Part shown: positions 4,705-62,231 of the stretch, in pieces | How the letters are laid out: every line of letters starts with the position of its first letter | How positions within the stretch are numbered: position 1 is the stretch's first letter | From: Minisyncoccota bacterium | GTDB taxonomy: Bacteria; Patescibacteriota; Minisyncoccia; Phycocordibacterales; UBA1550 | NCBI GenBank assembly: GCA_041660105.1 | Contig: JBAZWZ010000003.1 | Location: 25,527 to 89,526 of the forward strand | Length of the DNA: 64,000 nt | Direction: 5' to 3' | The notes under the pieces: generated by a model | Databases searched by the model: none | Seen by the model: only the letters and a program-made list of their open reading frames with translations | Told to the model about the DNA's origin: nothing | Position numbers and translations under genes: made by a program

Positions 4705-5361
4705 TTATCGTACGTCGACCTTCTTCTCTGCTTCCCCAGGGTTGAATAGGCGGTAATAAAGCTCGGTGAGCTCCTCTGTCCCAAGAGGAACCACGCGCAC
4801 ACCGGTGCGAGAAAGTCCCTGACTGATAATCCCCGCTCGTTGTTCAAGTTGTGTGCGTGCCTCTTCAAATGCTTCAGCCGCGCTTTGAGAAGGAACACCA
4901 CTTGCCTCCTTCTTTTTCCCAAAAAGACCAGAAAGACCGCCACTTGAAGCAGGAGCGTTGGTGACCGACTTTGGAGGTGCATAGGGAACAACAATAACAA
5001 AAAGCTTACTCATAATATTTGTCGACTGAGCAATCGTTTTTACGAACCCCATATATTCGCGAATCTGAATCTTTAATAATTCATTAACCTCTTCCTTGAG
5101 GCGACCTTCAAGGAGGATAAGGTAAGGGCGAATATCAAGACGACGCGATTGAATAAAAATCTGTGTGGAGAACTCGAGAGAGTTGAGAAAACTTTGAAAC
5201 TGCATCAAGACTGCTTGTTGCTCGTCGCCTGACTTGAGGGCGAGGTTCACCGAAGACGCCATAAGAAGCATACGAATAGTGCCATCTTTCAAAATCACGA
5301 CACCGTCGCGGATCTCTTTTACGGGAACAAAATCTTGTGCTGCTTTTGATTTGACTGCCAT
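4705..5361 (-). CDS. VirB4 N-terminal-domain-like protein, encoded separately and in a different frame from the ATPase ORF.
   Basis: 218 aa. The region VKEIRDGVVILKDGTIRMLLMASSVNLALKSGDEQQAVLMQFQSFLNSLEFSTQIFIQSRRLD resembles the N-terminal domain of Gram-positive VirB4 homologues (Tn916 Orf16/ConE type). It ends 17 bp before the VirB4 ATPase ORF. Confidence 0.45.
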   Translation of the reverse strand: MAVKSKAAQDFVPVKEIRDGVVILKDGTIRMLLMASSVNLALKSGDEQQAVLMQFQSFLNSLEFSTQIFIQSRRLDIRPYLILLEGRLKEEVNELLKIQIREYMGFVKTIAQSTNIMSKLFVIVVPYAPPKSVTNAPASSGGLSGLFGKKKEASGVPSQSAAEAFEEARTQLEQRAGIISQGLSRTGVRVVPLGTEELTELYYRLFNPGEAEKKVDVR

Positions 5362-5838: not shown

Positions 5839-5873
5839 TATACAACTAACCACCAACAACTAACAACTAACAA
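5839..5873. repeat. Heptanucleotide-repeat module tatacaactaaccaccaacaactaacaactaacaa (CAACTAA variant), immediately upstream of the prgI-like start, with TATAAT in between.
   Basis: Read directly. On the coding strand it reads GTTAGTTGTTAGTTGTTGGTGGTTAGTTGTATAATAGACCT-ATG. Confidence 0.8.
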
Positions 5874-12066: not shown

Positions 12067-14301
12067 TTACCAGTCACTGCCACCACCAGACGAAGGTGTT
12101 GGAGTAATTTTTACTGTTATTGACTGCTCTACTTTCCCAGGGGGTGTTAGTCCTGGTTTTGCAATTGGACCATAACAAACAAGGGTAACAACGGCTGGAG
12201 GATTTGAGGGGGTTGTGACAAATCCTGTGTTGGTCCCCTCCATTCGGGTCCCATCACCAGCTTCGACAGTAATTGTTGATGTAGTGCCCCCTGAATCTCC
12301 GAATCCTGGGTTGGTCACCGTTCTTTGTTCACTGTGTTTTGGTACCTGAGAGCCTACATAGCCAGGCTTTACACGCGCTTTTCCTTGAGCCGTGACACTA
12401 CCAAGAAGCCCTCTTACGGAACTCCATGTTGTGGTTGCGGTTTCTCTCTCATCAAATATTTCAAGATATGCATCTGCTCCAATCTTACAACTGGAAGCAT
12501 TTGAAGCAGCCCAGCGAATTTCCGACCAATCACCAACCTTTGCTTCGGCAATAGCATCTGGGTCTGCTTTGAATTCCTCAATTTCTGGAGGGGCGTTATA
12601 GAGACCCCCTGATGTGTCAAGTCGAAGATCTCCCCAGTTTGTCACTGTGTATCCAGCACCAACGCACTTAAACTCCAAATTAACTTTTGTTGAAACACCA
12701 CTAACAAATTTCAAAGTTACAGAATCATCAAACAATACACGTGATGTGCTCGAAATTGGAAACGAGTCATTTTTTTCAAAAGGGGTTTCACTACTTCCTT
12801 GGACCGCCAAAGCCTTCCCATCGAGAACCTTGATAACACAACTATCTGCATCTTTGATTTTCCACCAAATCGTACCAATTTCATTTCGTGCGATAACTCC
12901 ATCATTTGGTGTTGTTCCTACGGTTATCTTTGGTCCCGGAGTTCCTGTTCCTACGGTTATTGGTTCAACTGATGATGAGTTCCAGTTGAGAAAATGTGAG
13001 GCGCTGTTCGTAGTTCCGCCCCCTGAGCACTTAATAATAAACTCAACATTGTTGTCATTCCCGCTTATCTTTACCTTCCAGGACCCCGACATTGATGGAA
13101 GCGCCTGCGTAAATCCTGAGTATGTTGACCCATAAGTGTTTGTTTTTCCGTCTGCGAGGACAACGGTTATCTGCCTCATATTTTGTATGGTGCAAGAGGT
13201 TGCCTCTGTTACTTTCCAAGACACCGTCGAGGTTTCGCCAAAACCGATCGTATCGGGGCTCATAGTAAGACTGATTTGTGGACCAACAGGGTTTGTGCTT
13301 GTTGCTGTATAGCTTGTTGAATTGGTTGTATTTGTTCCACTCCCTGTGTTTGTCCCACTGCCTGTATTCGTACCACTACCACTTCCGGTGTTCGTCCCAC
13401 TTCCTGTGTTTGTGCCACTCCCACTACCTGTATTTGTACCGCTACCTGCATCTGTGCTTGCTCCTACGGCAACTCGAATACAAGCCGATTTTTCAAACAA
13501 TGTTGAGCTTTTTTGAGCAGTCTGACAGTCACTGCTGGAGAGGAATGTTGAAGTTTGAAAAGGAGTATTTGGTCCTGCGTCAGCTTTCCCTTTAAAAATG
13601 TATACATATTTGTCAGAGCTTCCTGTGGTTGTTGGCTTCACGATACCGATAGTAACTGATTTTTTTGCAGTGCCGTTTGCTCCCGTACAGCTAATATCGA
13701 AAGTATAAGGTGTTTGAGGCGAAACAGTTTTGGTCCCTGTTAGTCGCAGTGTGTTGCCTGCCCCATCAACACATCTTGTTGTATTGAGTGTCGTCCAAGA
13801 AATTATTGACTGAGAATTTGCCTTGACCTCAATAGGAAAAGCAGTGATGTTTATGATTGGATATGTCGTAACAGCAACCTTGATTGATTGAATAGTTGTA
13901 CCTTTTGGATTTGTGCATACAATATCCATTGTGTAGTCTTCCCTTGGAGTTATGGAGAGACTGCCATTCAGGCGAAGGGCGTTACCGTTACTGTCTGCAC
14001 AGCTCGTTGCATTTGTTGAGTTCCAGGAAATAATAGCTGATTGCCCAGGAGAAACGACAGGTACATCTGCGGACACGGTAACAAGTGGAACAACAAGGTT
14101 TTGGGAACTCGTCGACACACCTTCTGTAGGAGTCGGAAATGAGTAAGTATCTTTAACTTGCCCAGTTTGACCTTCGTTTTGAGGCGCAACCGCCCCTCTT
14201 GTGTAAATAAACACAATCGCAATAATAACAACAAGCACGATAAGACCAATAATAAGAAACTTTTTTTTCTTCTCGTCCTGCATAATATTATTTATGTCCA
14301 T
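12067..14301 (-). CDS. Large N-terminally anchored surface protein with duplicated Ig-like domains and a (GSGTNT)n low-complexity linker.
   Basis: 744 aa with an N-terminal TM (FLIIGLIVLVVIIAIVFIY). Two homologous roughly 75-aa domains (ISWNSTNATSCADSNGNALRLNGSLSITPREDYTMDIVCTNPKGT / ISWTTLNTTRCVDGAGNTLRLTGTKTVSPQTPYTFDISCTGANGTAKK). Linker GSGTNTGSGSGTNTGSGTNTGSGSGTNTGSGTNTGSGTNTT. Confidence 0.55.
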   Translation of the reverse strand: MDINNIMQDEKKKKFLIIGLIVLVVIIAIVFIYTRGAVAPQNEGQTGQVKDTYSFPTPTEGVSTSSQNLVVPLVTVSADVPVVSPGQSAIISWNSTNATSCADSNGNALRLNGSLSITPREDYTMDIVCTNPKGTTIQSIKVAVTTYPIINITAFPIEVKANSQSIISWTTLNTTRCVDGAGNTLRLTGTKTVSPQTPYTFDISCTGANGTAKKSVTIGIVKPTTTGSSDKYVYIFKGKADAGPNTPFQTSTFLSSSDCQTAQKSSTLFEKSACIRVAVGASTDAGSGTNTGSGSGTNTGSGTNTGSGSGTNTGSGTNTGSGTNTTNSTSYTATSTNPVGPQISLTMSPDTIGFGETSTVSWKVTEATSCTIQNMRQITVVLADGKTNTYGSTYSGFTQALPSMSGSWKVKISGNDNNVEFIIKCSGGGTTNSASHFLNWNSSSVEPITVGTGTPGPKITVGTTPNDGVIARNEIGTIWWKIKDADSCVIKVLDGKALAVQGSSETPFEKNDSFPISSTSRVLFDDSVTLKFVSGVSTKVNLEFKCVGAGYTVTNWGDLRLDTSGGLYNAPPEIEEFKADPDAIAEAKVGDWSEIRWAASNASSCKIGADAYLEIFDERETATTTWSSVRGLLGSVTAQGKARVKPGYVGSQVPKHSEQRTVTNPGFGDSGGTTSTITVEAGDGTRMEGTNTGFVTTPSNPPAVVTLVCYGPIAKPGLTPPGKVEQSITVKITPTPSSGGGSDW
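13330..13450 (-). repeat. In-frame imperfect 18-nt tandem repeat tract encoding (GSGTNT)n inside the surface protein gene.
   Basis: Direct reading shows repeated acc/act-ccx-gtg/gta-ttt-gt units. The opposite-strand ORF 13322..13516 translating VFVPLP repeats is its shadow. Confidence 0.7.
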
Positions 14302-14323: not shown

Positions 14324-14559
14324 GTATACCCCCACACCTACTTTTTGCATAGTAAGTTATACACAGAAATGTATTTAGAGAACAACCGTCCTAAATACAT
14401 AGTGTGGTGGCGACGTAAAAGTAGGTGTGGGGGTGTACCCCCTGCCCAGTTCTCTTGCCTACTTTTTGCATAGTAAGTTATACACAGAAATGTATTTAGA
14501 GAACAACCGTCCTAAATACATAGTGTGGTGGCGACGTAAAAGTAGGTGTGGGGGGTATA
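14324..14559. repeat. Composite palindromic repeat of 1.7 units. The TIR is GTATACCCCCACACCTACTTTT, followed by a 70-bp core, the inverted TIR, a linker, and a second core plus inverted TIR.
   Basis: Read directly. 14324..14438 is TIR-core-TIR'. 14457..14559 repeats the core and right TIR. The whole block recurs in inverted orientation at 18555..18787. Confidence 0.85.
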
Positions 14560-53653: not shown

Positions 53654-53917
53654 ATGGTTGAAGTAATTGGGTGTAAGCGTGTTCAGACTGCACATTCTGA
53701 ATACCTCCTTACTCTTGTCAGAGTTGAGGGGAAACTCAAGTGCATTTGTCGGAAAACCGCGGACCTTTCTAATGGAAAGCAATCAGCGCTCCCCGTTGGT
53801 TGGAAATGCGAAATAACAAAGCTTGCCCTTGAAAAAGGAAAGCGAATGCACCTCGTTGGAGATATTTTCTCAAGCACGGTAACGCGCATTGAAGATGTCC
53901 CATTGACCAAAAACTGA
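53654..53917 (+). CDS. Small hypothetical protein (87 aa), Cys-containing.
   Basis: RBS gacaggagaattcagATG; CxxVQ...CICRK...C motifs. Confidence 0.45.
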   Translation: MVEVIGCKRVQTAHSEYLLTLVRVEGKLKCICRKTADLSNGKQSALPVGWKCEITKLALEKGKRMHLVGDIFSSTVTRIEDVPLTKN

Positions 53918-53930
53918 AAGGAGAAACGAA

Positions 53931-54386
53931 ATGAAAACAGAAGTTCCTTTGTGGGGCACTGCTCTTACGAGTTTCGCAGTGTTGTTTGCGGTGGGGTTTT
54001 ACAATTTCGGGTTCACTGGCGCGATTGGGTTTTGTTGGTGTGTAATCGGGCGAATCATTGCGATTGCGCTTACTCTGGTGGCACTCGTAGCACTCGTCTG
54101 TGCTCTCGCTGTTGCTGTCTATTCTTTTGTGGAGGGGTTCAAACGTGTACGGGGCGAAAGACACGAATGGTACTTTGTAAACAGGCTTTGTTGCTCGTTC
54201 GTCTTGGTGGCGTGGGGGTTCCTGTTCTTACATATATCTTCGGAATATCTGTGGGTACCTTCCATCTTACCTGACACTATGAGCATATGTGCTCTGTGGG
54301 CGGTTTATTGGAAAATATATCTCGTCGCACTGCTCGTCTCCCTTACGATAAGGTCTTGGAACAAAAAGTGGTGTGGGGATTGGTGA
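53931..54386 (+). CDS. Small polytopic membrane protein (151 aa, about 4 TM).
   Basis: RBS aaaggagaaacgaaATG; hydrophobic helices LTSFAVLFAVGFY, IIAIALTLVALVALVCALAVAVY, SFVLVAWGFLFL, ALWAVYWKIYLVALLVSL. Confidence 0.5.
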   Translation: MKTEVPLWGTALTSFAVLFAVGFYNFGFTGAIGFCWCVIGRIIAIALTLVALVALVCALAVAVYSFVEGFKRVRGERHEWYFVNRLCCSFVLVAWGFLFLHISSEYLWVPSILPDTMSICALWAVYWKIYLVALLVSLTIRSWNKKWCGDW

Positions 54387-54492
54387 AATTCTCCCACAGT
54401 GCAAAGCGGCTTCGCGAGAAGCCGCTTTTTATTTTGTATAGACCTAAAGCATTCTCTATATAGAAATATTTTGTTATACTAACAATGAACAG

Positions 54493-54588
54493 GTGACCAA
54501 TGACACCGCTTTCGCGGACAAGTGACTTGGAAACTTTTTGCGTCGCGAAAAGTTTCCGTCAAATGTTAATTGTCAATCGTCAATTGTC
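54493..54588. promoter_or_regulatory. pilB upstream module: the conserved box ACACCGCTTTCGCGGACAAGTGAC, the palindrome GGAAACTTTTTGCG-TCG-CGAAAAGTTTCC, and degenerate TCAATTG/TCAGTTG heptads.
   Basis: Read directly. The architecture is the same as the modules at the 5' ends of the three pilin genes. Confidence 0.7.
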
Positions 54589-54597
54589 CCACCCCCC

Positions 54598-56337
54598 ATG
54601 GCCGTCAACAACAAACAACTTAAAGAATTTATCGAAGACTCTGGTCTCGTGCCCCGCACGGAGCTCGAGGAGATAGATAAGCGTGCAGCAGAGACAAAAG
54701 TTTATCTTGGGAACGTGCTCGTATCTGAGGGGAAAATTTCTGAAGATGACTTGCGTCGCACTGAGGCGTACATCCTCGGCATTCCTTTCGTAAATCTCAA
54801 ATCACAAAAAATTGATTTTGAAGTTTTGTCGCTCATCCCTGAGCCTATCGCGCGCAAGCACAACATCGTCGCTTTCAAAAAAACAGAAACATCTCTCGAG
54901 GTCGCGATGCTCGATACGGATGACCTCGCCGCAATAGAATTTATAAAAAAGAAAGTTGGATTGAAGATCCTCCCGCGACTCACTGACAAGGAGTCCATCA
55001 CGGGCGTACTCCTCCAATATCAAAAAAGTCTCAAGGAGGAATTTGGAGATATTATTGAGAAAGAGGCGAGCGGGCTCAAAGAAGGAGAAGAAGATCAAAG
55101 CGAGGAGGATTTGAAAAAGCTCGCGCAAGATTTGCCGGTGGTAAAAATTGTTGATACGCTCCTCAATCACGCCATCATCCAAGGAGCATCAGATATTCAC
55201 ATCGAGCCTCTTGATACAGAAGTGGTGATTCGTTATCGCATCGACGGTATTCTCCATGATGCAATGACACTCCCAAAGAGTGCGGCGTCGGGTATTGTCG
55301 CGCGTGTGAAGGTTCTCTCAAACTTAAAGCTCGACGAAAAGCGTTTGCCTCAAGACGGACGTTTCAAGATAGACTCAGGTGGTGAGAAGGTTGCGTTCCG
55401 TGTGTCGACGCTCCCTGTGTACTATGGAGAGAAGACCGTTATGCGTCTTCTTCGTGAGACGTCGGAGGGATTTTCGCTCGAAGGGCTTGGCTTCCATGGG
55501 AAGGGCCTCGAGCGTATTCACGAGGCGACGAAGCAACGCGTCGGGATGATCCTCGCTACAGGACCTACGGGGTCTGGTAAGTCGACAACACTTTATACTA
55601 TTCTCGACCTTGTGAATGAGCCCGAGGTGAACATTTCTACTATTGAAGATCCTATCGAATATCAAATGAAGCGCGTGAATCAAACGCAAGTGAAATCAGA
55701 AATCGGCCTCACGTTTGCAAATGGACTTCGTACTCTAATGCGTCAAGACCCAGACATCATTATGGTGGGGGAAATCCGCGACACCGAGACGGCATCGCTC
55801 GCGGTCAACGCGGCTCTCACCGGTCACCTCGTGCTCTCGACACTCCACACCAACTCAGCTGCAGCATCGATGCCACGTCTCATCGATATGGAAATCGAGC
55901 CGTTCTTAATTGTTTCGACCGTGAATGTTATCATCGGACAGCGTCTCGTGCGCAGGCTGACTGCGACAAGAGACAAATATTTCTTGAATGCTGACGAGCT
56001 TGCTATCCTCGGGAAATCAGTGAACCTCGACCGCATTATGCAAGTGATGAAAGATGAAAAGCTCTTGGCTCCGACTGCCGAGTGGAAGGATGTACCTTTT
56101 TATCATCCAAAAAAGTCAACGGAATCAGAGGACGGTTACAAAGGCCGCGTGGGTATCCACGAAGTTATGAAAATGTCCGCAGCGATCCGCACACTCGTGC
56201 TCAAGGGCGCGACAGCATCGGAAGTGGAAGAGCAGGCAAAGAAAGAAGGAATGACGACGATGATTGAGGACGGGATTATTAAGGCGTCGCAGGGGATTAC
56301 GACCATAGAAGAAGTCTTGCGCGTAGTCTCCGAATAG
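54598..56337 (+). CDS. pilB: Type IV pilus assembly ATPase PilB (GspE family).
   Basis: N-terminal T2SSE_N domain; Walker A ILATGPTGSGKSTTLYTIL; Asp/His boxes; tetracysteine-less CPR-like C-terminus. Start set to MAVNNKQ (54598). Confidence 0.9.
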   Translation: MAVNNKQLKEFIEDSGLVPRTELEEIDKRAAETKVYLGNVLVSEGKISEDDLRRTEAYILGIPFVNLKSQKIDFEVLSLIPEPIARKHNIVAFKKTETSLEVAMLDTDDLAAIEFIKKKVGLKILPRLTDKESITGVLLQYQKSLKEEFGDIIEKEASGLKEGEEDQSEEDLKKLAQDLPVVKIVDTLLNHAIIQGASDIHIEPLDTEVVIRYRIDGILHDAMTLPKSAASGIVARVKVLSNLKLDEKRLPQDGRFKIDSGGEKVAFRVSTLPVYYGEKTVMRLLRETSEGFSLEGLGFHGKGLERIHEATKQRVGMILATGPTGSGKSTTLYTILDLVNEPEVNISTIEDPIEYQMKRVNQTQVKSEIGLTFANGLRTLMRQDPDIIMVGEIRDTETASLAVNAALTGHLVLSTLHTNSAAASMPRLIDMEIEPFLIVSTVNVIIGQRLVRRLTATRDKYFLNADELAILGKSVNLDRIMQVMKDEKLLAPTAEWKDVPFYHPKKSTESEDGYKGRVGIHEVMKMSAAIRTLVLKGATASEVEEQAKKEGMTTMIEDGIIKASQGITTIEEVLRVVSE

Positions 56338-56614
56338 GCCTTCCAATATTGAGCGATTGCGTCGTTGTGATGCGTACAATCTCCGTCACCGTACGTCATG
56401 TACGTTTCCGTCGATTGTCCTTTCACGCCTTGCACTCGTCTCAATATTGAAAGGCCTAGATTGAGTACATATTAAAGGAAAGGGAGGGATTGCCTACGGC
56501 AATCCCGCTCTTTCTGTGTTTGTAGTCTGTATGTCAACGGCTCATTTGGGCGGAAATGAGCCGTTGAGTCATTGCACTTCGCTATTTTTTGCGCGATAAT
56601 AGAAGAAGCATATT

Positions 56615-57829
56615 ATGCCTAAATTTAAATACAAAGTACGGGAACTTTCAGGGAAGATTACCGATGGCGAGATGGAGGCTGTCAATCGTTTTGCTGTGGC
56701 TTCTGACTTGAGGAAGTCAGGAAAGTCCGTTGTCTCTGTCGAGGAGGTGTCAGGGGGAATCGTTATTGATATGGAAACCATCAATGCGTTTCTTTCAAAG
56801 GTGAAGATCCAAGAGCTCATTGTGTTTGCGCACAACCTCTCCTCAATGATGAAAGCAGGACTCGCTCTTTCGCGCGGGCTTTCTATTCAAGAACGACAAA
56901 CCAAAAATTTTGCACTCAAGAAAACATTGAAGTCGCTGATTGATGAAGTGAGTAAGGGTGCAACCCTCTCGGTAGGAATGGCGAAATTTCCAAAAGTTTT
57001 TTCGCCGATATTCATCGCGATGGTGCGCGCGGGAGAGGAGTCGGGGCAACTCTCCGACACCCTTCTCGTAGTGGGGGACCAGCTTGAGAAAAGCTATCTT
57101 TTGAAAAAGAAAATCAAAGGCGCGATGATATACCCATCTGTTGTTATCTCGGTGCTCCTCATCATCGCAGTGCTGATGTTTATCTTTGTGGTGCCGACAC
57201 TTACCGCAACGTTCAAAGATCTCAATACGGCACTGCCAACGAGTACAAAAGTGATTATCTGGATTTCTGACACGCTCGCAAATCATCTTATGTTGTTTGT
57301 TCTTGCGGTCGCTGTTGTTGTCGTTTCGTTTATTGTTGCTCTCCGTACGAAGCCTGGACATCGAGCGTTTGAGTTTGTATCGCTTCGTTTGCCTCTCATT
57401 GGAGATATGGTCCGTCAGTCAAACGCCGCTCTCGTATCGCGCACACTCTCGTCGCTCCTCTCATCAGGTGTCGATATGCTTGAGGCTATCAATATTACCA
57501 AGGATGTTGTACAAAATTCTTTTTTCAAAGAAACGCTTGCCCTTGCTGCTGAGCGTGTACAGAAAGGTATTCCACTCTCGTCTGTCTTTAAAGAAGGCGA
57601 CGTGTACCCAATCCTCGTGGGCGATATGATCGAGGTGGGTGAGGAGACGGGAAAACTTTCTGAGATGCTTCTCAACCTCGCGCTCTTTTACGAAAACGAA
57701 GTGAACGAGGCGACGAAGAACCTATCGACGATTATTGAGCCGCTTCTTATGGTGTTCATTGGAGCGTCGGTTGGGTTCTTTGCTATTTCAATGATTTCCC
57801 CAATGTACTCGGTGATGAGCAATGTGTAG
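56615..57829 (+). CDS. pilC: Type IV pilus inner-membrane platform protein PilC (GspF family).
   Basis: MPKFKYKVRELSGKITDGEMEAVNRFAVASDLRKSGKSVVSVEE; two T2SSF repeats; three TM helices. 404 aa. Confidence 0.85.
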   Translation: MPKFKYKVRELSGKITDGEMEAVNRFAVASDLRKSGKSVVSVEEVSGGIVIDMETINAFLSKVKIQELIVFAHNLSSMMKAGLALSRGLSIQERQTKNFALKKTLKSLIDEVSKGATLSVGMAKFPKVFSPIFIAMVRAGEESGQLSDTLLVVGDQLEKSYLLKKKIKGAMIYPSVVISVLLIIAVLMFIFVVPTLTATFKDLNTALPTSTKVIIWISDTLANHLMLFVLAVAVVVVSFIVALRTKPGHRAFEFVSLRLPLIGDMVRQSNAALVSRTLSSLLSSGVDMLEAINITKDVVQNSFFKETLALAAERVQKGIPLSSVFKEGDVYPILVGDMIEVGEETGKLSEMLLNLALFYENEVNEATKNLSTIIEPLLMVFIGASVGFFAISMISPMYSVMSNV

Positions 57830-57845
57830 CCGCGCGAAGCGCGGC

Positions 57846-57993
57846 GACAACTGACCACTAACACCGCTGCGCGGACAACTGACAAGAATGCAAAATACAC
57901 AACTGACAATTAACAAAGAACAACTGACAATTAACCAACAGATTTTCGCTACGCGAAAATCTGCCGTCAGTTGTCAGTTGTCAGTTGTCAGTT
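57846..57993. repeat. Pilin-1 5' module: the ACACCGCTGCGCGGACAACTGAC box, CAACTGA-type repeats, the palindrome CAGATTTTCGC-TAC-GCGAAAATCTG (57929..57953), and (GTCAGTT)x4 (57956..57985).
   Basis: Read directly. It overlaps the start of the pilin-1 ORF. Confidence 0.85.
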
Positions 57994-58433
57994 GTTCTCT
58001 GCGTCGGGGGTACACCCTCCTTGAGCTTCTCGTTGTCATCGCCATCCTCGGCCTCATAATGGCAATAACTATCCCTTCCTTTTCGGAGTTTCGACAAAAC
58101 AGCGCTTTGAACGCCGACACAATGAATGTCATAACGCTTATCAACAGAGCACGACTTCTCTCAGTGTCTGACAAAGGAGATAAACAATACGGCATTTATC
58201 TATCCTCTACTTCATCGATTTTGTTTGCGAGTTCAACCTTTGCAAGTTCCGCAACATCAACAAGAGAAACATATACATTGAGCAGTGGGATAACTATGTC
58301 AGGGACTGCTTCGGAAATTGTATTTGCAAAGGTTACCGGCGTTGCAAGCACGGCAGCAACCACAACCCTCCTCGGCACGACCTCAAGCACAACAATATTA
58401 ATATACCCAACGGGTATCGCTACTATTAAATAA
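57888..58433 (+). CDS. Type IV prepilin-like protein 1 (class III signal G|YTLLE plus a hydrophobic helix), with an unusually long repeat-encoded leader.
   Basis: ...SVVSCSLRRG|YTLLELLVVIAILGLIMAITIPSF. The leader MQNTQLTINKEQLTINQQIFATRKSAVSCQLSVVSCSLRRG is encoded by the heptad/palindrome module. An alternative in-frame TTG would give an 11-aa leader. Confidence 0.7.
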   Translation: MQNTQLTINKEQLTINQQIFATRKSAVSCQLSVVSCSLRRGYTLLELLVVIAILGLIMAITIPSFSEFRQNSALNADTMNVITLINRARLLSVSDKGDKQYGIYLSSTSSILFASSTFASSATSTRETYTLSSGITMSGTASEIVFAKVTGVASTAATTTLLGTTSSTTILIYPTGIATIK

Positions 58434-58450
58434 GGAGTAGAATATAATAA

Positions 58451-58594
58451 GAACAACTGACAACTGACAACTGACACAAAACAAAATGCAACAAAAACAA
58501 CTGACAACTGACAAAGAACAAATTACACACAAGCAGCGGATTTTCGCTACGCGAAAATCCGCCGTCAGTGGTCAAATGTCAGTTGTCAGTTGTG
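58451..58594. repeat. Pilin-2 5' module: (CAACTGA)x3, then (CAACTGA)x2 inside the start of the ORF, the palindrome CAGCGGATTTTCGC-TAC-GCGAAAATCCGCCG (58534..58564), and degenerate GTCAGTT repeats.
   Basis: Read directly. Confidence 0.85.
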
Positions 58595-60108
58595 CTCGCG
58601 CTACGCGCGGCTTTGGCCTCGTAGAAATAATTGTCGCCGCATCTATCCTTTCAGTCTCGATGCTCGCCATCTCCACTTTTTTCCAGTCGACGCTCAAGAT
58701 GAGTAGAACCATCGAAACGCAAAACCAATCGAACTACCTTCTCGAGGAAGGGGTTGAGGCTGTTAAGATTTTTCGTGATATGAGTTATGCTAATAACATT
58801 CTCAAGATAGCGACGTCTTCCCCGAGCTATTTTGTTTGGAACAGCACAGGTTCTACCTGGGCTACCTCGACCGTGAACGCTCTTATTGATGGCAAATATG
58901 AACGCAAAGTCACCTATGAGGATGTATTGCGCGACAACACAACGCACGATATTTCCACATCGACATCAGGGACCACTTACGATCCCAATGTGCGCCTCGC
59001 GACAGTATCGTTGTCATGGCTGTCAGGGACAACAACCGCAGGGCTCCTTTCTTCATTGGGAACTATTGCGATAGGGTCAGGAAGTAGTAACACTACTGAA
59101 TCAGGGATAGTTGTTTCTCCAGATGGCAAATACGCATACGCACTAAGAAGCAATGCTAACCTGGTATATATGTATAGTGTCAGTACAACCACAGGAGCTT
59201 TGATTGCGCTCGGGACTCCCACGGTTGCCACGGGAACAACACCAAAATCATTGATCGTATCACCTGACGGAAAGAATGTGTATGTTGCCAACTTCGGCTC
59301 CAACAATATTACTCGATATAGTCGCAATGTAAGTACGGGGGAGCTGTCATCTCTCGGGACTTCTTCCACGGGCTCATCGTCGGGGCCAACTTCAATTATC
59401 ATTTCACCAGACGGGTTGTCGGTGTATACATTGGACGATACCGCAAATAATATTTACAAATACACGCGCACGAGTTCTGGCGGACTAAGCTCGGGTGGTG
59501 CAGCAATTACGGTTACGATCACGTGTCCGTGTGGGTTCGCTATTTCTCCCGATGGCAACTCCGTATACTCAGTTGCTTCTGCGGGGACTGATGTATTTTC
59601 TCAATTTACACGTAGCACGAGCACGGGTGCCCTCTCGAGCAAAGTCGCCGTATCGCTGGCTACTAGCACGGCTCCATATTTTGGCGTCGCTGTTTCTCCT
59701 GACGCTTCTTTTGTGTATGCAACAAACAACGCAAACGACAGTGTTTCAATGTATAGCCGCGCCACGAGCACGGGGGCTCTCACGCTTCTCAGTCCTGCTA
59801 CTGTAGCCACAGGTGATCAGCCTCTGGGGATTGCCATCTCTCCCGATAATTTCTCTGCGTATGTGGTAAACGCTGGCAGTAACACGATTTCACAGTTCAG
59901 CCGTAATGTTACTACGGGGGTTCTTACTCCACTAAGTACTGCTACTATTGCGACAGACTCCATCCCAAACACAATAGCAAATACTCCTGATGGCCATTCA
60001 GTGTATGTGATAAATAGGTCGAGCGCCCTGATTTCAATGTATAGTCGTGACCCTGGGTTGACTGTTAAGACCATACAGACCTATATAACGAATATTTTTA
60101 CTAATTAA
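58486..60108 (+). CDS. Type IV prepilin-like protein 2 fused to a 7-bladed YVTN-type beta-propeller (candidate pilus-tip adhesin).
   Basis: Leader ...MSVVSCARATRG|FGLVEIIVAASILSVSM. Seven repeats of the form (V/I)SPDGxxxYVxNxxxNxIxxYxR (e.g. VSPDGKNVYVANFGSNNITRYSR). Confidence 0.7.
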   Translation: MQQKQLTTDKEQITHKQRIFATRKSAVSGQMSVVSCARATRGFGLVEIIVAASILSVSMLAISTFFQSTLKMSRTIETQNQSNYLLEEGVEAVKIFRDMSYANNILKIATSSPSYFVWNSTGSTWATSTVNALIDGKYERKVTYEDVLRDNTTHDISTSTSGTTYDPNVRLATVSLSWLSGTTTAGLLSSLGTIAIGSGSSNTTESGIVVSPDGKYAYALRSNANLVYMYSVSTTTGALIALGTPTVATGTTPKSLIVSPDGKNVYVANFGSNNITRYSRNVSTGELSSLGTSSTGSSSGPTSIIISPDGLSVYTLDDTANNIYKYTRTSSGGLSSGGAAITVTITCPCGFAISPDGNSVYSVASAGTDVFSQFTRSTSTGALSSKVAVSLATSTAPYFGVAVSPDASFVYATNNANDSVSMYSRATSTGALTLLSPATVATGDQPLGIAISPDNFSAYVVNAGSNTISQFSRNVTTGVLTPLSTATIATDSIPNTIANTPDGHSVYVINRSSALISMYSRDPGLTVKTIQTYITNIFTN

Positions 60109-60109
60109 T

Positions 60110-60228
60110 ATGAAAAAACAATTGACATGAAACAACTGACAACTGACAAAAAACAATCGACATGGGCCCAGCGGATTTTCGCTACGCGAAAATCCGCTGT
60201 CAGTCGTCAGTCGTCAGTTGTCAGTTGT
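60110..60228. repeat. Pilin-3 5' module: (CAACTGA)x2, the palindrome CAGCGGATTTTCGC-TAC-GCGAAAATCCGCTG (60169..60199, a perfect 14-bp stem), and GTCAGTC/GTCAGTT repeats.
   Basis: Read directly. Confidence 0.85.
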
Positions 60229-60735
60229 GCGCGTACCCGCGCCTTCACCCTCGTTGAGATGATCATCTACGCAGCTATTTTTTCATTCATCTCCATCGTT
60301 GCGGTCAATGGAGTCATCGTGTCGATGAAGTCATTTTATAATATTCGTCTTTCTCAAAATATAAATCAGTCTGCGACGGTCGCAATGGACCGTATGGCGT
60401 ATGAGATTCGTAATGCATACAATATTGACAGCACAAACAGCACCCTCGGGACAAGCCCAGGCAGACTTACGTTGCTCACAGAAGACGCTAACGGGAATAG
60501 CACTACCGTTGAGTTTTATGTTATTGCAAATCAACTAAATATGAGGGTAGGCGGGGTAGATCAGGGACCGCTTCTTGTGAAGACATCCATATTGACCAAT
60601 CTTATTTTCCTGCCAATCACTACGCCAAATTCTAAGGCGGTAAAAATAGAAATGACTGCGCAAGATTCGCGCCAGGATGCTACAAAAACAGCAAAGTATT
60701 ATGATACAATAGTATTGAGGGGTTCGATCCACTAA
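60127..60735 (+). CDS. Type IV prepilin-like protein 3 (pseudopilin-like).
   Basis: Leader MKQLTTDKKQSTWAQRIFATRKSAVSRQSSVVSCARTRA|FTLVEMIIYAAIFSFISIVAV. 202 aa. Confidence 0.65.
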   Translation: MKQLTTDKKQSTWAQRIFATRKSAVSRQSSVVSCARTRAFTLVEMIIYAAIFSFISIVAVNGVIVSMKSFYNIRLSQNINQSATVAMDRMAYEIRNAYNIDSTNSTLGTSPGRLTLLTEDANGNSTTVEFYVIANQLNMRVGGVDQGPLLVKTSILTNLIFLPITTPNSKAVKIEMTAQDSRQDATKTAKYYDTIVLRGSIH

Positions 60736-60747
60736 TTTATTATATTT

Positions 60748-62124
60748 ATGCCCAAGAATAATCAATACACTGTCTCATACAAACGTGGCGCAGCGGTCAT
60801 AACGGTAGTTTTGTTCTTTGTAATTATTGCCACAACCGTTTTACTTGGGGTATCGTCTCCAGTTGTAAGCGAATATAAAACTGCGCGCGATCTCGGTAAT
60901 TCAAAGAGTGCGTACTATCTGAGCGAGGCCGGACTCGAGGATGTTATGTATCGAACAATGAAAGCAATAGGGATAACTTCCCCTGTCATCCTCACGCTTG
61001 GGGGCAATATTGCTACGACGACGGCGACAACAGTGAGTTCGAGCGAAGTGACAGTTTCATCAGTGGGGGATGTGAAGACCAACATCCGCAAGATTGGCGT
61101 GACACTTTCGACAGGAGTAGGAAATGAATTCTTTTACGCACTCCAAGCTGGAGGGGGCGGGATAAATATGGCAACAAGTTCAGTTATCAATGGCAACGTA
61201 TTTTCAGACGGGCATGTTTGCGGGGCAGGTATTGGAAATACTTATTGTGACACAGCAGATTCAAACGGAATAACTGAGCAGAGTACGATAACAGGCACGG
61301 TGGTTTCTCGTGGGACAACAGGCCTCAATGGAACTATAAATAGAATTATAAACACAATAGAAGGAGCTTCAATGCATGCGGGGAATATTACAAACGCGTT
61401 TATTATGGGAAGTCCATATTGCACTACAAATTATAATTCAAGTCCGCCTGGGTGCGAGACGCTTGTTGCTCAGCCACAAGCAGACGCGCCAATTTCAGAT
61501 GCCGATATCACTGCATGGAAAAACGCAGCAATTGCTGGGGGGAATGAAGAGTGCGACGGGGCTGCCTATACAATAGCTGAAGACGCAACGGATTTGGGCC
61601 CCAGAGTAATTCCTTGCAATCTGGTTATTGACGGAAGCAGTGGCACGGACACTGTTACTCTCAAGGGACCTGTTTGGGTAAAGGGAAATATAACCATAAG
61701 GAGAAGCCTTATTATTAAAGTTGATCCAGCGCGCACAGGGCAGAGTATGGTGATGATAGCGGACAAGGAGTCTGATCATACCAATAGTAGCAGGATAATA
61801 TTGGAAGGCAATTCCAATTCAAGAGTTTTTGATGGAGCAGGAGAGAATTCGTGGGTTATGCTACTTTCTCAAAATGATAGTGCTTATAACAGTGGCGCGG
61901 TCATAGCAATCGATGCCCAAGGGAACACAAGTGGAGATGTGATCCTTATGGCACTAAAAGGGCAAGTCCAACTTTTCGATGCTTCAGTAGCTAGTATCAC
62001 CGCGTACTGGATATCAATCCTCGCTGACGGAGTTGTAAATTATTCGATGGGCATGCAGAGTGCACTCTTTTATTCTGGACCCGCTGGCTCGTGGAATACA
62101 ATGGATTGGAGGTTGGGACAGTAA
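60748..62124 (+). CDS. PilX-N-like pilus assembly/minor pilin protein with a large Gly/Thr/Asn-rich C-terminal domain.
   Basis: RGAAVITVVLFFVIIATTVLLGVSSPV resembles the PilX N-terminal TM segment. No G|FTLxE site. 458 aa. Confidence 0.5.
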   Translation: MPKNNQYTVSYKRGAAVITVVLFFVIIATTVLLGVSSPVVSEYKTARDLGNSKSAYYLSEAGLEDVMYRTMKAIGITSPVILTLGGNIATTTATTVSSSEVTVSSVGDVKTNIRKIGVTLSTGVGNEFFYALQAGGGGINMATSSVINGNVFSDGHVCGAGIGNTYCDTADSNGITEQSTITGTVVSRGTTGLNGTINRIINTIEGASMHAGNITNAFIMGSPYCTTNYNSSPPGCETLVAQPQADAPISDADITAWKNAAIAGGNEECDGAAYTIAEDATDLGPRVIPCNLVIDGSSGTDTVTLKGPVWVKGNITIRRSLIIKVDPARTGQSMVMIADKESDHTNSSRIILEGNSNSRVFDGAGENSWVMLLSQNDSAYNSGAVIAIDAQGNTSGDVILMALKGQVQLFDASVASITAYWISILADGVVNYSMGMQSALFYSGPAGSWNTMDWRLGQ

Positions 62125-62126
62125 GA

Positions 62127-62207
62127 ACAACTGACATCTGACAACTGACAACTGACGCGGGAGAAAATACGGGCGGAACCTTCGGTTCCGCCCGTATTTT
62201 CGCACCC
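62127..62207. repeat. Heptad tract acaactgacatctgacaactgacaactgacg, followed by a terminator hairpin (gaaaatacgggcggaaccttcggttccgcccgtattttc) at the 3' end of the pilus locus.
   Basis: Read directly, between the PilX-like stop and tpiA. Confidence 0.8.
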
Positions 62208-62231
62208 TTATTCCTGTGATATAATAAACGT

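Follow-up and report, generated by a model that had tools for sequence, protein, structure and literature searches.

A 5' cassette of heptanucleotide repeats with a predicted RNA hairpin in type IV pilus genes of a Yonathbacteria-like bacterium

In the 5' untranslated regions (5'UTRs) of the Haemophilus influenzae genes hmw1A and hmw2A, RNase III processes a long hairpin, one arm of which is made up of (ATCTTTC)n heptamers in the transcript. The hmw repeats are non-coding, number at least 11 and have a G-rich arm as their partner; expression changes in a graded way with their number, and its dependence on RNase III has been demonstrated (PMC12721329). This is the closest known system to the element that we describe here, a cassette of heptanucleotide (heptad) repeats at the 5' ends of type IV pilus genes on a 64,000-nt stretch of contig JBAZWZ010000003.1 (positions 25,527 to 89,526; henceforth the window). 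The similarity of its PilC protein places the organism in the Parcubacteria of the candidate phyla radiation (CPR), as a Candidatus Yonathbacteria-like bacterium. Three consecutive pilin-like open reading frames (ORFs), pilin-1 (57888..58433), pilin-2 (58486..60108) and pilin-3 (60127..60735), follow the genes for a PilB-type ATPase (ATG start; 54598..56337) and a PilC-type platform protein (56615..57829), and each of the three opens with a copy of the cassette. As in hmw, 7-nt repeats are placed at the 5' end of an mRNA for an adhesin or surface structure, where they would be transcribed and offer a substrate for slippage, and they make up one arm of a long cis-acting hairpin, which for the pilin cassettes is a predicted one. 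Unlike in hmw, the pilin cassettes hold 4-5 units, both arms are heptad arrays, the whole lies inside a probably translated leader, the phylum (CPR) is an unrelated one, and no length variation was seen in the cassettes of relatives.

The opa genes of Neisseria carry (CTCTT)n within the region coding for the signal peptide, in about 7-28 units that vary within and between strains, and OFF alleles are common. The pilin cassettes resemble opa in that the repeat unit is not a multiple of three, lies in a leader that is, or in the pilins is predicted to be, cleaved off, recurs in several paralogues and encodes a dispensable peptide; unlike opa, which has no hairpin, their tracts are constant in number and all alleles are ON. 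In the pil1 and pil3 loci of Streptococcus gallolyticus, which direct the synthesis of sortase pili, GCAGA repeats (13-22) are found in a leader peptide, with a stem-loop attenuator serving as terminator (PMC3894217). Common to pil1 and the present locus are the association with pilus genes, a translated upstream repeat ORF, and a stem-loop whose formation would depend on ribosome passage. In the pilin cassettes, however, leader and prepilin are parts of one fused ORF, the hairpin itself contains the repeats, and no clear U-tract follows the 3' arm; the separate leader ORF and the terminator that define leader-peptide attenuation are thus lacking. Prepilin leaders have been reported to span 6-26 aa, with about 15-30 aa in type IVb prepilins (PMC4471445). 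The window pilins share with type IVb prepilins a class III signal peptide, Gly(-1), Glu(+5), a hydrophobic helix and a leader above the type IVa norm, but they differ from them in predicted leader length (39-42 aa; about 50-60 aa in relatives as called), in their type IVa-like context of PilB/PilC and a minor-pilin operon, and in having orthologues with 8-aa leaders. Short palindromic or heptameric multi-copy repeats, such as Rickettsia palindromic elements (RPEs), repetitive extragenic palindromes (REPs), miniature inverted-repeat transposable elements (MITEs) and the cyanobacterial short tandemly repeated repetitive sequences (STRRs), occur genome-wide at unrelated loci; RPEs can sit in frame within ORFs, and STRRs are lineage-specific 7-nt tandem repeats. 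From all of these, the cassette is set apart by its restriction to type IV pilus genes and by a covarying, selected stem. A central part in the attachment of the ultrasmall CPR bacteria (Patescibacteria) to host cells, and in their feeding on them, is attributed to type IV pili; to the best of our knowledge, nothing is known about the regulation of these pili in the CPR, and our literature searches, in which the CPR was paired with phase variation, heptamers or the leaders of pilins, turned up no earlier description.

Each pilin module is a long inverted repeat that is predicted to form a hairpin of about 100 nt, with a 5' arm of (ACAACTG)-type heptads, a palindrome at the tip, and a 3' arm of (GTCAGTT)n. 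The 19-nt palindrome ATTTTCGC-TAC-GCGAAAAT is the same in all three genes (at 57942, 58540 and 60175), three exact copies where 0.03 would be expected; the window holds 22 matches to a two-heptad pattern, with 0.59 expected. Over the stretch that runs from the palindrome through the heptads, all three are equally long (19+5+28+2 nt), and substitutions alone distinguish them. An initial annotation of this DNA had held that indels never distinguish them, which is true of this part of the module; a single 3-nt indel follows in pilin-2, 3' of the heptads. The perfect in-frame (GTCAGTT) tract that the same annotation had pointed out in pilin-1 was recovered, with 4.3 copies at 57966-57995, and pilin-1 is the only window pilin to have one. 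In the 5' arm of pilin-1, TGA and TAA triplets are confined to frames +1 and +2. The heptad array that precedes the ATG of pilin-2 (58453..58476) is non-coding since it contains TGA in all three frames, and it constitutes an alternative 5' partner for the 3' arm of pilin-2.

All three pilin ORFs stay in frame from an upstream ATG through the module to the cleavage site, as had been proposed. The leaders had been put at roughly 45 aa; long they are, yet from Met to residue -1 inclusive they measure 41, 42 and 39 aa in pilin-1, pilin-2 and pilin-3 (an example of a leader peptide is QIFATRKSAVSCQLSVVSC). Each protein matches the Pfam family N_methyl at about residues 36-62 (E-values of 1e-7, 3e-4 and 1e-4, respectively; with 20.5 bits, pilin-2 scores slightly below the cut-off of 21.2), in agreement with the prepilin cleavage sites suggested for all three. 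These sites read RRG↓YTLLE in pilin-1, TRG↓FGLVE in pilin-2 and TRA↓FTLVE in pilin-3, so that the features of a class III signal peptide (G-1, F/Y+1, E+5, and a hydrophobic helix of about 20 aa) are present throughout, except that residue -1 is Gly in pilin-1 and pilin-2 and Ala in pilin-3. If the conserved ATG is the start, the short hydrophilic leader that normally goes with such a signal peptide is replaced by a much longer one; the National Center for Biotechnology Information (NCBI) annotates pilin-1 in this 181-aa long form (P0001).

We consider it highly probable, from the sequence comparisons that follow, that the long leader is translated. Of the three frames upstream of the cleavage site, that of the pilin is open over the greatest length in 26 of the 28 module- or tract-bearing pilin genes that we compared (null expectation, 1/3), with a median open length of 36 codons versus 21.5 and 22.5 codons in the other two frames. 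An in-frame ATG lies upstream of the tract in 28/28 genes, the majority of which lack a start codon within the tract or 3' of it; in L008:11215, L090:5742, L094, L091, L009 and L011, an ATG right before the tract is the only start. Leaders with the type A module (see below) vary between 26 and 42 codons and always keep the frame. The coding 5' arms of the window contain at most 2.6 ACAACTG units, with TGAs in frames +1 and +2 only in all three genes; the non-coding ACAACTG arrays reach 3.4-4.3 units and close every frame. Even when weak matches are counted, Shine-Dalgarno (SD)-like sites are found at only 5 of the 47 long ORFs of the window, and since the genome is almost devoid of them, an internal TTG held in a -50 kcal/mol stem would be a poor start site. 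It is the frame, the upstream ATG, the scarcity of later starts, the bias in stop frames and the scarcity of SD sites that argue for translation; the openness of (GTCAGTT)n is uninformative on its own because this repeat has no stop codon in any frame, and it offers TTG in every frame once n is at least 3. The closer in-frame Met noted earlier for pilin-2 exists as ATG 58576 (MSVVSCARATRG↓F), 12 codons before the cleavage site. Pilin-1 has an in-frame TTG (57978) at the equivalent position and pilin-3 has TCG there, with no canonical alternative start; pilin-1 and pilin-2 may thus possess a second, short leader option. Many ORFs of the window show a TATAAT-like box 6-9 nt before their ATG (e.g., tpiA at 62232 and the PrgI gene), and the sequence suggests that leaderless or very short-leader mRNAs are the norm in this genome.

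Folding of the modules predicts minimum free energies of -50.4, -53.0 and -55.5 kcal/mol for pilin-1, pilin-2 and pilin-3 (z -7.9, -7.4 and -7.7) and of -37 kcal/mol (z -4.4) for a diverged copy upstream of pilB; the short-leader pilins of relatives have folding z-scores of about 0. The covariation set consisted of 11 modules from 6 genomes with 14 inner-stem pairs. Seven of these pairs are changed on both sides, with 21 compensatory cells, and the resulting score was reached by none of 500 shuffles. While 92% of the cells are paired in the inner stem, this fraction dropped to about 40-50% once the structure was slid by 1-3 columns. A few U-G pairs are present on the plus strand, and the UUUUCGC/GCGAAAA core is invariant. 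Covariation around an invariant core across six genomes therefore indicates selection on structure. The arms, too, are matched to each other: cognate arm duplexes of the window are predicted at -32 to -40 kcal/mol versus -10 to -13 kcal/mol with the arms of other genomes, and of the 34 modules in all, about 10 show such cognate-specific pairing (Wilcoxon p=0.006 for the whole set). Both the predicted folds and this cognate-specific pairing thus assign the heptamers to an arm of a long predicted 5' RNA hairpin. The initial annotation had overlooked the hairpin with its covarying core, as well as the copy in the pilB 5'UTR and the clade-wide occurrence of the cassettes. In the third-pilin leader of locus L163 (1799-1900), we noted GATAATCATTTCCACCAACGT, which is exactly reverse-complementary to the stretch that encodes TLVEMII at the mature N-terminus; in this stem, the codons for G↓F fall in the loop.

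Our comparative set comprised 160 PilC-anchored loci and several others that were fetched by protein look-up; a close set of 34 non-redundant loci (0.49 Mb) and a distant set of 100 loci (1.3 Mb) were evaluated for tandem repeats. Perfect tandem tracts of at least three copies in the close loci numbered 21 for period 7 and 0-1 for periods 5, 6 and 8-15; the distant loci held four perfect period-7 tracts. About 19 of these 25 perfect heptad tracts lie 7-16 nt before a prepilin cleavage motif and possess 4-5 copies. Under a looser criterion, a period-7 tract was detected in 20/84 pilin leaders versus 14/6726 background windows of 70 nt, and periods 5, 6, 8 and 9 were found in none of the 84 leaders. 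The units themselves vary among species and paralogues (ATTCCCT, AAAAGTC, ACTTTCG, ATTCGAT, AACATTC, TTCCAAA, ATTCAAC/T, CCAAATA, ACTTTCC and GTCAGTT). Yonathbacteria relatives thus share the heptad cassettes clade-wide, with different units. Pilin-1 orthologues in the protein database have leaders that are either ordinary (8-10 aa) or long (15-60 aa), and the latter include members of the same module family, e.g., MEQLTINKIHNAQIFASQKSAIKCQMSTVKCSPRG↓Y and MKQLTTNKIFDEWVFAKRKPTVNCFHRG↓F.

The arrays turn over between orthologues. (ACTTTCG)x4.4 in L008 corresponds to (ACTTTCC)x4.4 in L094, a concerted change of the whole array with identical flanks and copy number; since the units of orthologues differ within the same flanks and at the same copy number, slippage and homogenisation appear to be ongoing. 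Two types of cassette, unrelated to each other in sequence, can be distinguished. Type A has the arrangement AACAATTGAC-ATG-AAACAATTAAC..., followed by the hairpin and GTCAAnn heptads, and type B reads TAGAATATTGAAT-ATG-GAATA..., followed by GGAGAAT/ATTCCCY arms. Entire type A and type B cassettes have been swapped among species whose mature pilins are 85-97% identical. These exchanges, observed in the pilin leaders of L003/L004/L010 and of L008/L090, took place between close species and between paralogues, and their boundaries are sharp, one directly 3' of the upstream stop codon and the other 6-10 nt ahead of the Gly codon. The core palindrome occurs in the 64-kb window at four pilus genes only, unlike a dispersed REP, MITE or RPE, and in more than 170 loci the complete module was found at pilins and pilB only. 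Because the prepilin-like proteins P0023 and P0030, which belong to different families, bear the same ...FA(T/L)RKSAVSCQLSVVS... leader, the cassette is not confined to the three operon pilins; one of the two lacks Glu5.

The fourth copy in the window is a transcribed, untranslated element of the pilB 5'UTR. Its 5' part holds a small CCGC/GCGG hairpin (54489-54526), to which an inner stem-loop GGAAACTTTTTGC-GTC-GCGAAAAGTTTCC (54529-54557) and heptads of the (GTCAATT) type (54558-54588) are joined. The module is not in the frame of pilB (ATG 54598) and provides an internal control for the conservation of frame in the pilins. It is inserted between TGnTATACT and the pilB ATG in the window and in L004, L010 and L012, and is absent upstream of pilB in L002, L005, L006, L008 and L014; in relatives without it, the same -10 box lies 10-13 nt before the pilB ATG. 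We also noted a 58-aa upstream ORF (54500..54676) that starts in the pilB module and passes through its hairpin in the frame corresponding to that of the pilin leaders; it overlaps pilB by 78 nt in another frame, and an addition of 7 nt would fuse it in frame to PilB.

Solitary heptad arrays are likewise present. The one at 62127-62201, directly after which comes a strong terminator hairpin, is a perfect complement of (GTCAGTT)n as found in the 3' arms of the pilin leaders, and because this complementary array is transcribed, long-range or trans pairing with the leaders, perhaps by a small RNA derived from the 3'UTR, is conceivable. Two further arrays precede the genes for a secreted protein and for a PrgI-family protein, the latter encoded in a VirB4/TraG-like cluster (Table 1). 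The repeat unit of these arrays (5842-5873 and 51047-51076) includes TTGTCA, which agrees with the -35 consensus at 5/6 positions.

At about even chances, we read these data as a translated, RNA-structured 5' cassette of the type IV pilus genes of Yonathbacteria-like CPR bacteria whose heptads are homogenised by slippage. The pilin cassette would be translated from the ATG at its 5' edge into a class III leader of 39-42 residues, which prepilin peptidase would then remove. The sequence of the leader peptide itself is not conserved. What is conserved is the reading frame, a stem-loop of 12-14 bp and, in the window genome, complementary heptad arrays by which the stem is lengthened to about 100 nt. 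The cassette would act on the sense RNA as a common cis-element of pilus genes; the hairpin would begin right after the start codon, or in the 5'UTR, and would have to be melted by the ribosome, and it may be the target of a nuclease or a protein, or a 5' stabiliser. Replication slippage would generate the heptad arrays and keep them homogeneous. Several findings weigh against this reading. About eight tract-bearing leaders of relatives have no hairpin at all (z of about 0; among them L008:11260, L008:11810, L090:5796, L091:7823, L094:2539 and L094:3035), so that the hairpin is not the sole reason for the heptads, and tract and hairpin are separable features. A hairpin model does not explain why period 7 is so strictly preferred. 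A scan of positions 50000-64000 against Rfam (E<=1) returned no family, and hence there is no precedent RNA model. Pilin-1 and pilin-2 retain the in-frame TTG and ATG at -11/-12, and the predicted leaders lie beyond the length range given in PMC4471445.

Since the unit has 7 nt and lies within coding sequence, a slip by one unit truncates the ORF, and the tract is therefore a latent ON/OFF switch. This consequence had been foreseen, and simulated gain or loss of one or two units indeed reduced the ORFs to 38-75 aa. The claim of a "classic" slipped-strand switch, in contrast, is left unsupported by the comparisons that we made, although they do not refute it. Ten assemblies of the L010 species (9-23 single-nucleotide polymorphisms, SNPs, each) contained 0 indels in 9.5 kb, as judged from consensus sequences, which are blind to minority alleles. 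L010, L086 and L093 differ by SNPs only, and L008, L084 and L104, which carry perfect tracts, are 100% identical; these last are not three independent samples because the bin L008 derives from the same data set, H41. None of the 28 tract-bearing pilin genes is out of frame; variation in repeat number with ON and OFF alleles was thus not seen among the relatives examined. Tracts measure 4-5 units (27-35 nt) nearly everywhere, and a heptad leader length of 18 aa is kept in at least seven species, with slippage evident on the evolutionary time scale. A same-species comparison of copy number by exact PilC look-up yielded a single 2.2-kb Logan contig (L001) that ends inside the tract, and in PilC-anchored scans of genome and metagenome contigs for the same species, the best identity was 79-81%. 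Apparent indels between L022 and L103, L047 and L139, and L060 and L156 proved to be N-masked gaps, and the interrupted pilin-1 frame of L176 (P0020; contig cov_3), with a premature stop away from the tract and homology that picks up again behind it, was treated as an error or pseudogene. Phase variation is mechanically possible, and comparisons of consensus assemblies do not support it. With respect to the SNPs of the L010 species, 4 of about 20 (L167-L175 versus L010) fall within about 35 nt of the pilin-2 leader 3' arm (about 5095-5128), compared to about 16 in the remaining 9.5 kb.

It is possible, though we would not call it probable, that the heptad tract has been selected as a contingency locus, a slipped-strand switch that would turn minor pilins, piliation and host attachment stochastically ON and OFF in an episymbiont. 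A repeat unit that is not a multiple of three in the 5' coding region of surface-structure genes, with truncation upon slippage, is what such a switch calls for; period 7 alone is about 100-fold enriched in pilin leaders clade-wide, many tracts are perfect, the turnover of units points to ongoing slippage and homogenisation, hairpin-free leaders with only the tract exist, and the opa CTCTT and S. gallolyticus pil1 GCAGA repeats (PMC3894217) are precedents. To be set against this are the missing length variants and out-of-frame genes just described, a conserved copy number that is low for such loci, and the restriction of the perfect tract to one of the three window pilins. Moreover, the in-frame TTG or ATG located 30-33 nt before Gly(-1) in pilin-1 and pilin-2 would survive any change in copy number, and heptads are also found in non-coding positions (the pilB 5'UTR and promoter-proximal DNA), where frameshifting is impossible. 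A combination, in which the cassette plays a dual role in the pilins and pilB as translated leader and regulatory mRNA hairpin, and also as a slippage-prone frameshift switch by which individual pilins would be switched or tuned stochastically, seems unlikely to us. If true, it would represent a previously undescribed type IV pilus control system in Yonathbacteria-like CPR bacteria and the first simple-sequence contingency loci in Patescibacteria, joining opa-type with hmw-type logic.

We find it quite improbable that the cassette is a selfish or neutral palindromic repeat, akin to a MITE or an RPE and tolerated since the leader is cleaved off. Several near-identical copies per genome, their exchange as blocks with sharp boundaries among pilin genes and close species, their gain and loss on individual genes and an unconstrained leader peptide would fit such an element, and the in-frame palindromic elements of Rickettsia are a known parallel. 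Yet type IV pilus genes are the only sites of the complete module, both in the window and in more than 170 loci, its inner stem covaries around the invariant core, frame and ATG are kept, and we saw neither target-site duplications nor terminal inverted repeats apart from the arms. Very improbable, in our view, is a non-coding leader, with TTG 57978 and ATG 58576 as the true starts of pilins with 11-12-aa leaders and the module as a 5'UTR or intercistronic hairpin in which the frame is incidental. The matching positions of these two codons agree with it, as do the openness of (GTCAGTT)n in all frames by construction, the certainly untranslated module upstream of pilB, and the 8-9-aa leaders that orthologues often have. 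It does not account for pilin-3 and most module-bearing relatives, which are without a canonical start in or after the tract, nor for the longest open frame being frame 0 in 26/28 genes with a conserved ATG, the avoidance of frame 0 by the 5'-arm TGAs in three genes, or candidate starts that have no SD site and are buried in the predicted stem.

Other roles for the heptads were considered and rejected. A sequence-specific heptad-binding protein was dismissed since units differ even among the paralogues of L008 (AAAAGTC, ACTTTCG and ATTCGAT), and a DNA-uptake sequence since the copies cluster at pilus genes and are not spread genome-wide. Peptides encoded by different units share no property, which excludes a protein-level reason for the 7-periodicity, and the units are not of the X_XXY_YYZ type that a slippery heptamer for -1 ribosomal frameshifting would require.

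The cassette defines a conserved and readily recognised cis-element that is particular to pilus genes in one CPR clade, and it offers a natural example of coding-frame, RNA-structure and tandem-repeat constraints acting together. If the long leaders are translated, they would widen the known length range of prepilin leaders. A hypothesis also emerges, testable on metagenomic reads that already exist, by which simple-sequence repeats would serve CPR bacteria for phase variation. Because of these cassettes, leader lengths differ widely among CPR pilin orthologues, from 8 to more than 40 aa, and start calls for such pilins in annotated genomes should be read with this in mind. The features of the window are compiled in Table 1.

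Table 1. Cassettes, solitary heptad arrays and associated signals in the 64,000-nt window (hairpins and promoter-like boxes are predictions)
Feature	Coordinates	Strand	Basis
Extended -10-like box TGTTATACT of pilB	54472..54480	+	comparison with relatives
Diverged module copy in the pilB 5'UTR	54489..54588	+	folding, relatives
ATG start of pilin-1 (long leader)	57888..57890	+	ORF analysis, NCBI annotation
5' arm of pilin-1 hairpin, two 21-nt units each holding ACAACTGACAATTAAC	57899..57941	+	folding
Inner stem-loop of pilin-1, CAGATTTTCGC-TAC-GCGAAAATCTG, conserved core and covarying outer stem	57939..57963	+	covariation
(GTCAGTT)x4.3, 3' arm of pilin-1 hairpin; translation VSCQLSVVSC; in-frame TTG 57978	57966..57995	+	repeat scan, folding
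Gly(-1) codon (58008-58010) and mature pilin-1 YTLLELLVVIAILGL..., GspH/FimT-like minor pilin	58008..58433	+	Pfam, orthologue comparison
(ACAACTG)x3.4 upstream of pilin-2 ATG	58453..58476	+	repeat scan, folding
Pilin-2 cassette: ATG 58486, 5' arm 58497-58514, inner stem-loop 58536-58562, imperfect 3' heptads 58564-58593, Gly(-1) 58609-58611	58486..58611	+	
Pilin-3 cassette: ATG 60127, 5' arm 60132-60149, inner stem-loop 60169-60199, 3' heptads 60199-60228, Ala(-1) 60241-60243	60127..60243	+	
Solitary (ACAACTG)x4.3 in the 3'UTR of the last pilus-cluster gene, then terminator hairpin 62163-62201	62127..62201	+	repeat scan
Solitary (GTCAGTT)-type array just upstream of -10-like TATACT, gene for a secreted (signal-peptide) protein 50090..50986	51047..51076	-	
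Solitary (GTTAGTT)-type array, immediately followed by TATAAT and the ATG of a PrgI-family gene	5842..5873	-	

A scan of positions 54300-62300 with sigma-70 and terminator consensus sequences found no convincing promoter before the pilins; in the same scan, the inner palindromes were terminator-like on the minus strand only, a result that we did not use. Pilin-3 is preceded by a six-codon mini-ORF, MKKQLT* (60110..60130, plus strand), whose TGA overlaps the ATG of pilin-3 as ATGA, and the two may be translationally coupled. Pilin-2 is a modular pilin of 540 aa with a C-terminal lactonase-type, 7-bladed beta-propeller (PF10282, E-value 3e-36). Away from the pilus genes, the window holds a perfect 121-bp tandem duplication (x1.8) at 14337-14554 and a repeat with a period of 42 nt (x2.9) at 13337-13457, the latter inside the span of a minus-strand ORF of 744 aa (12067..14301).

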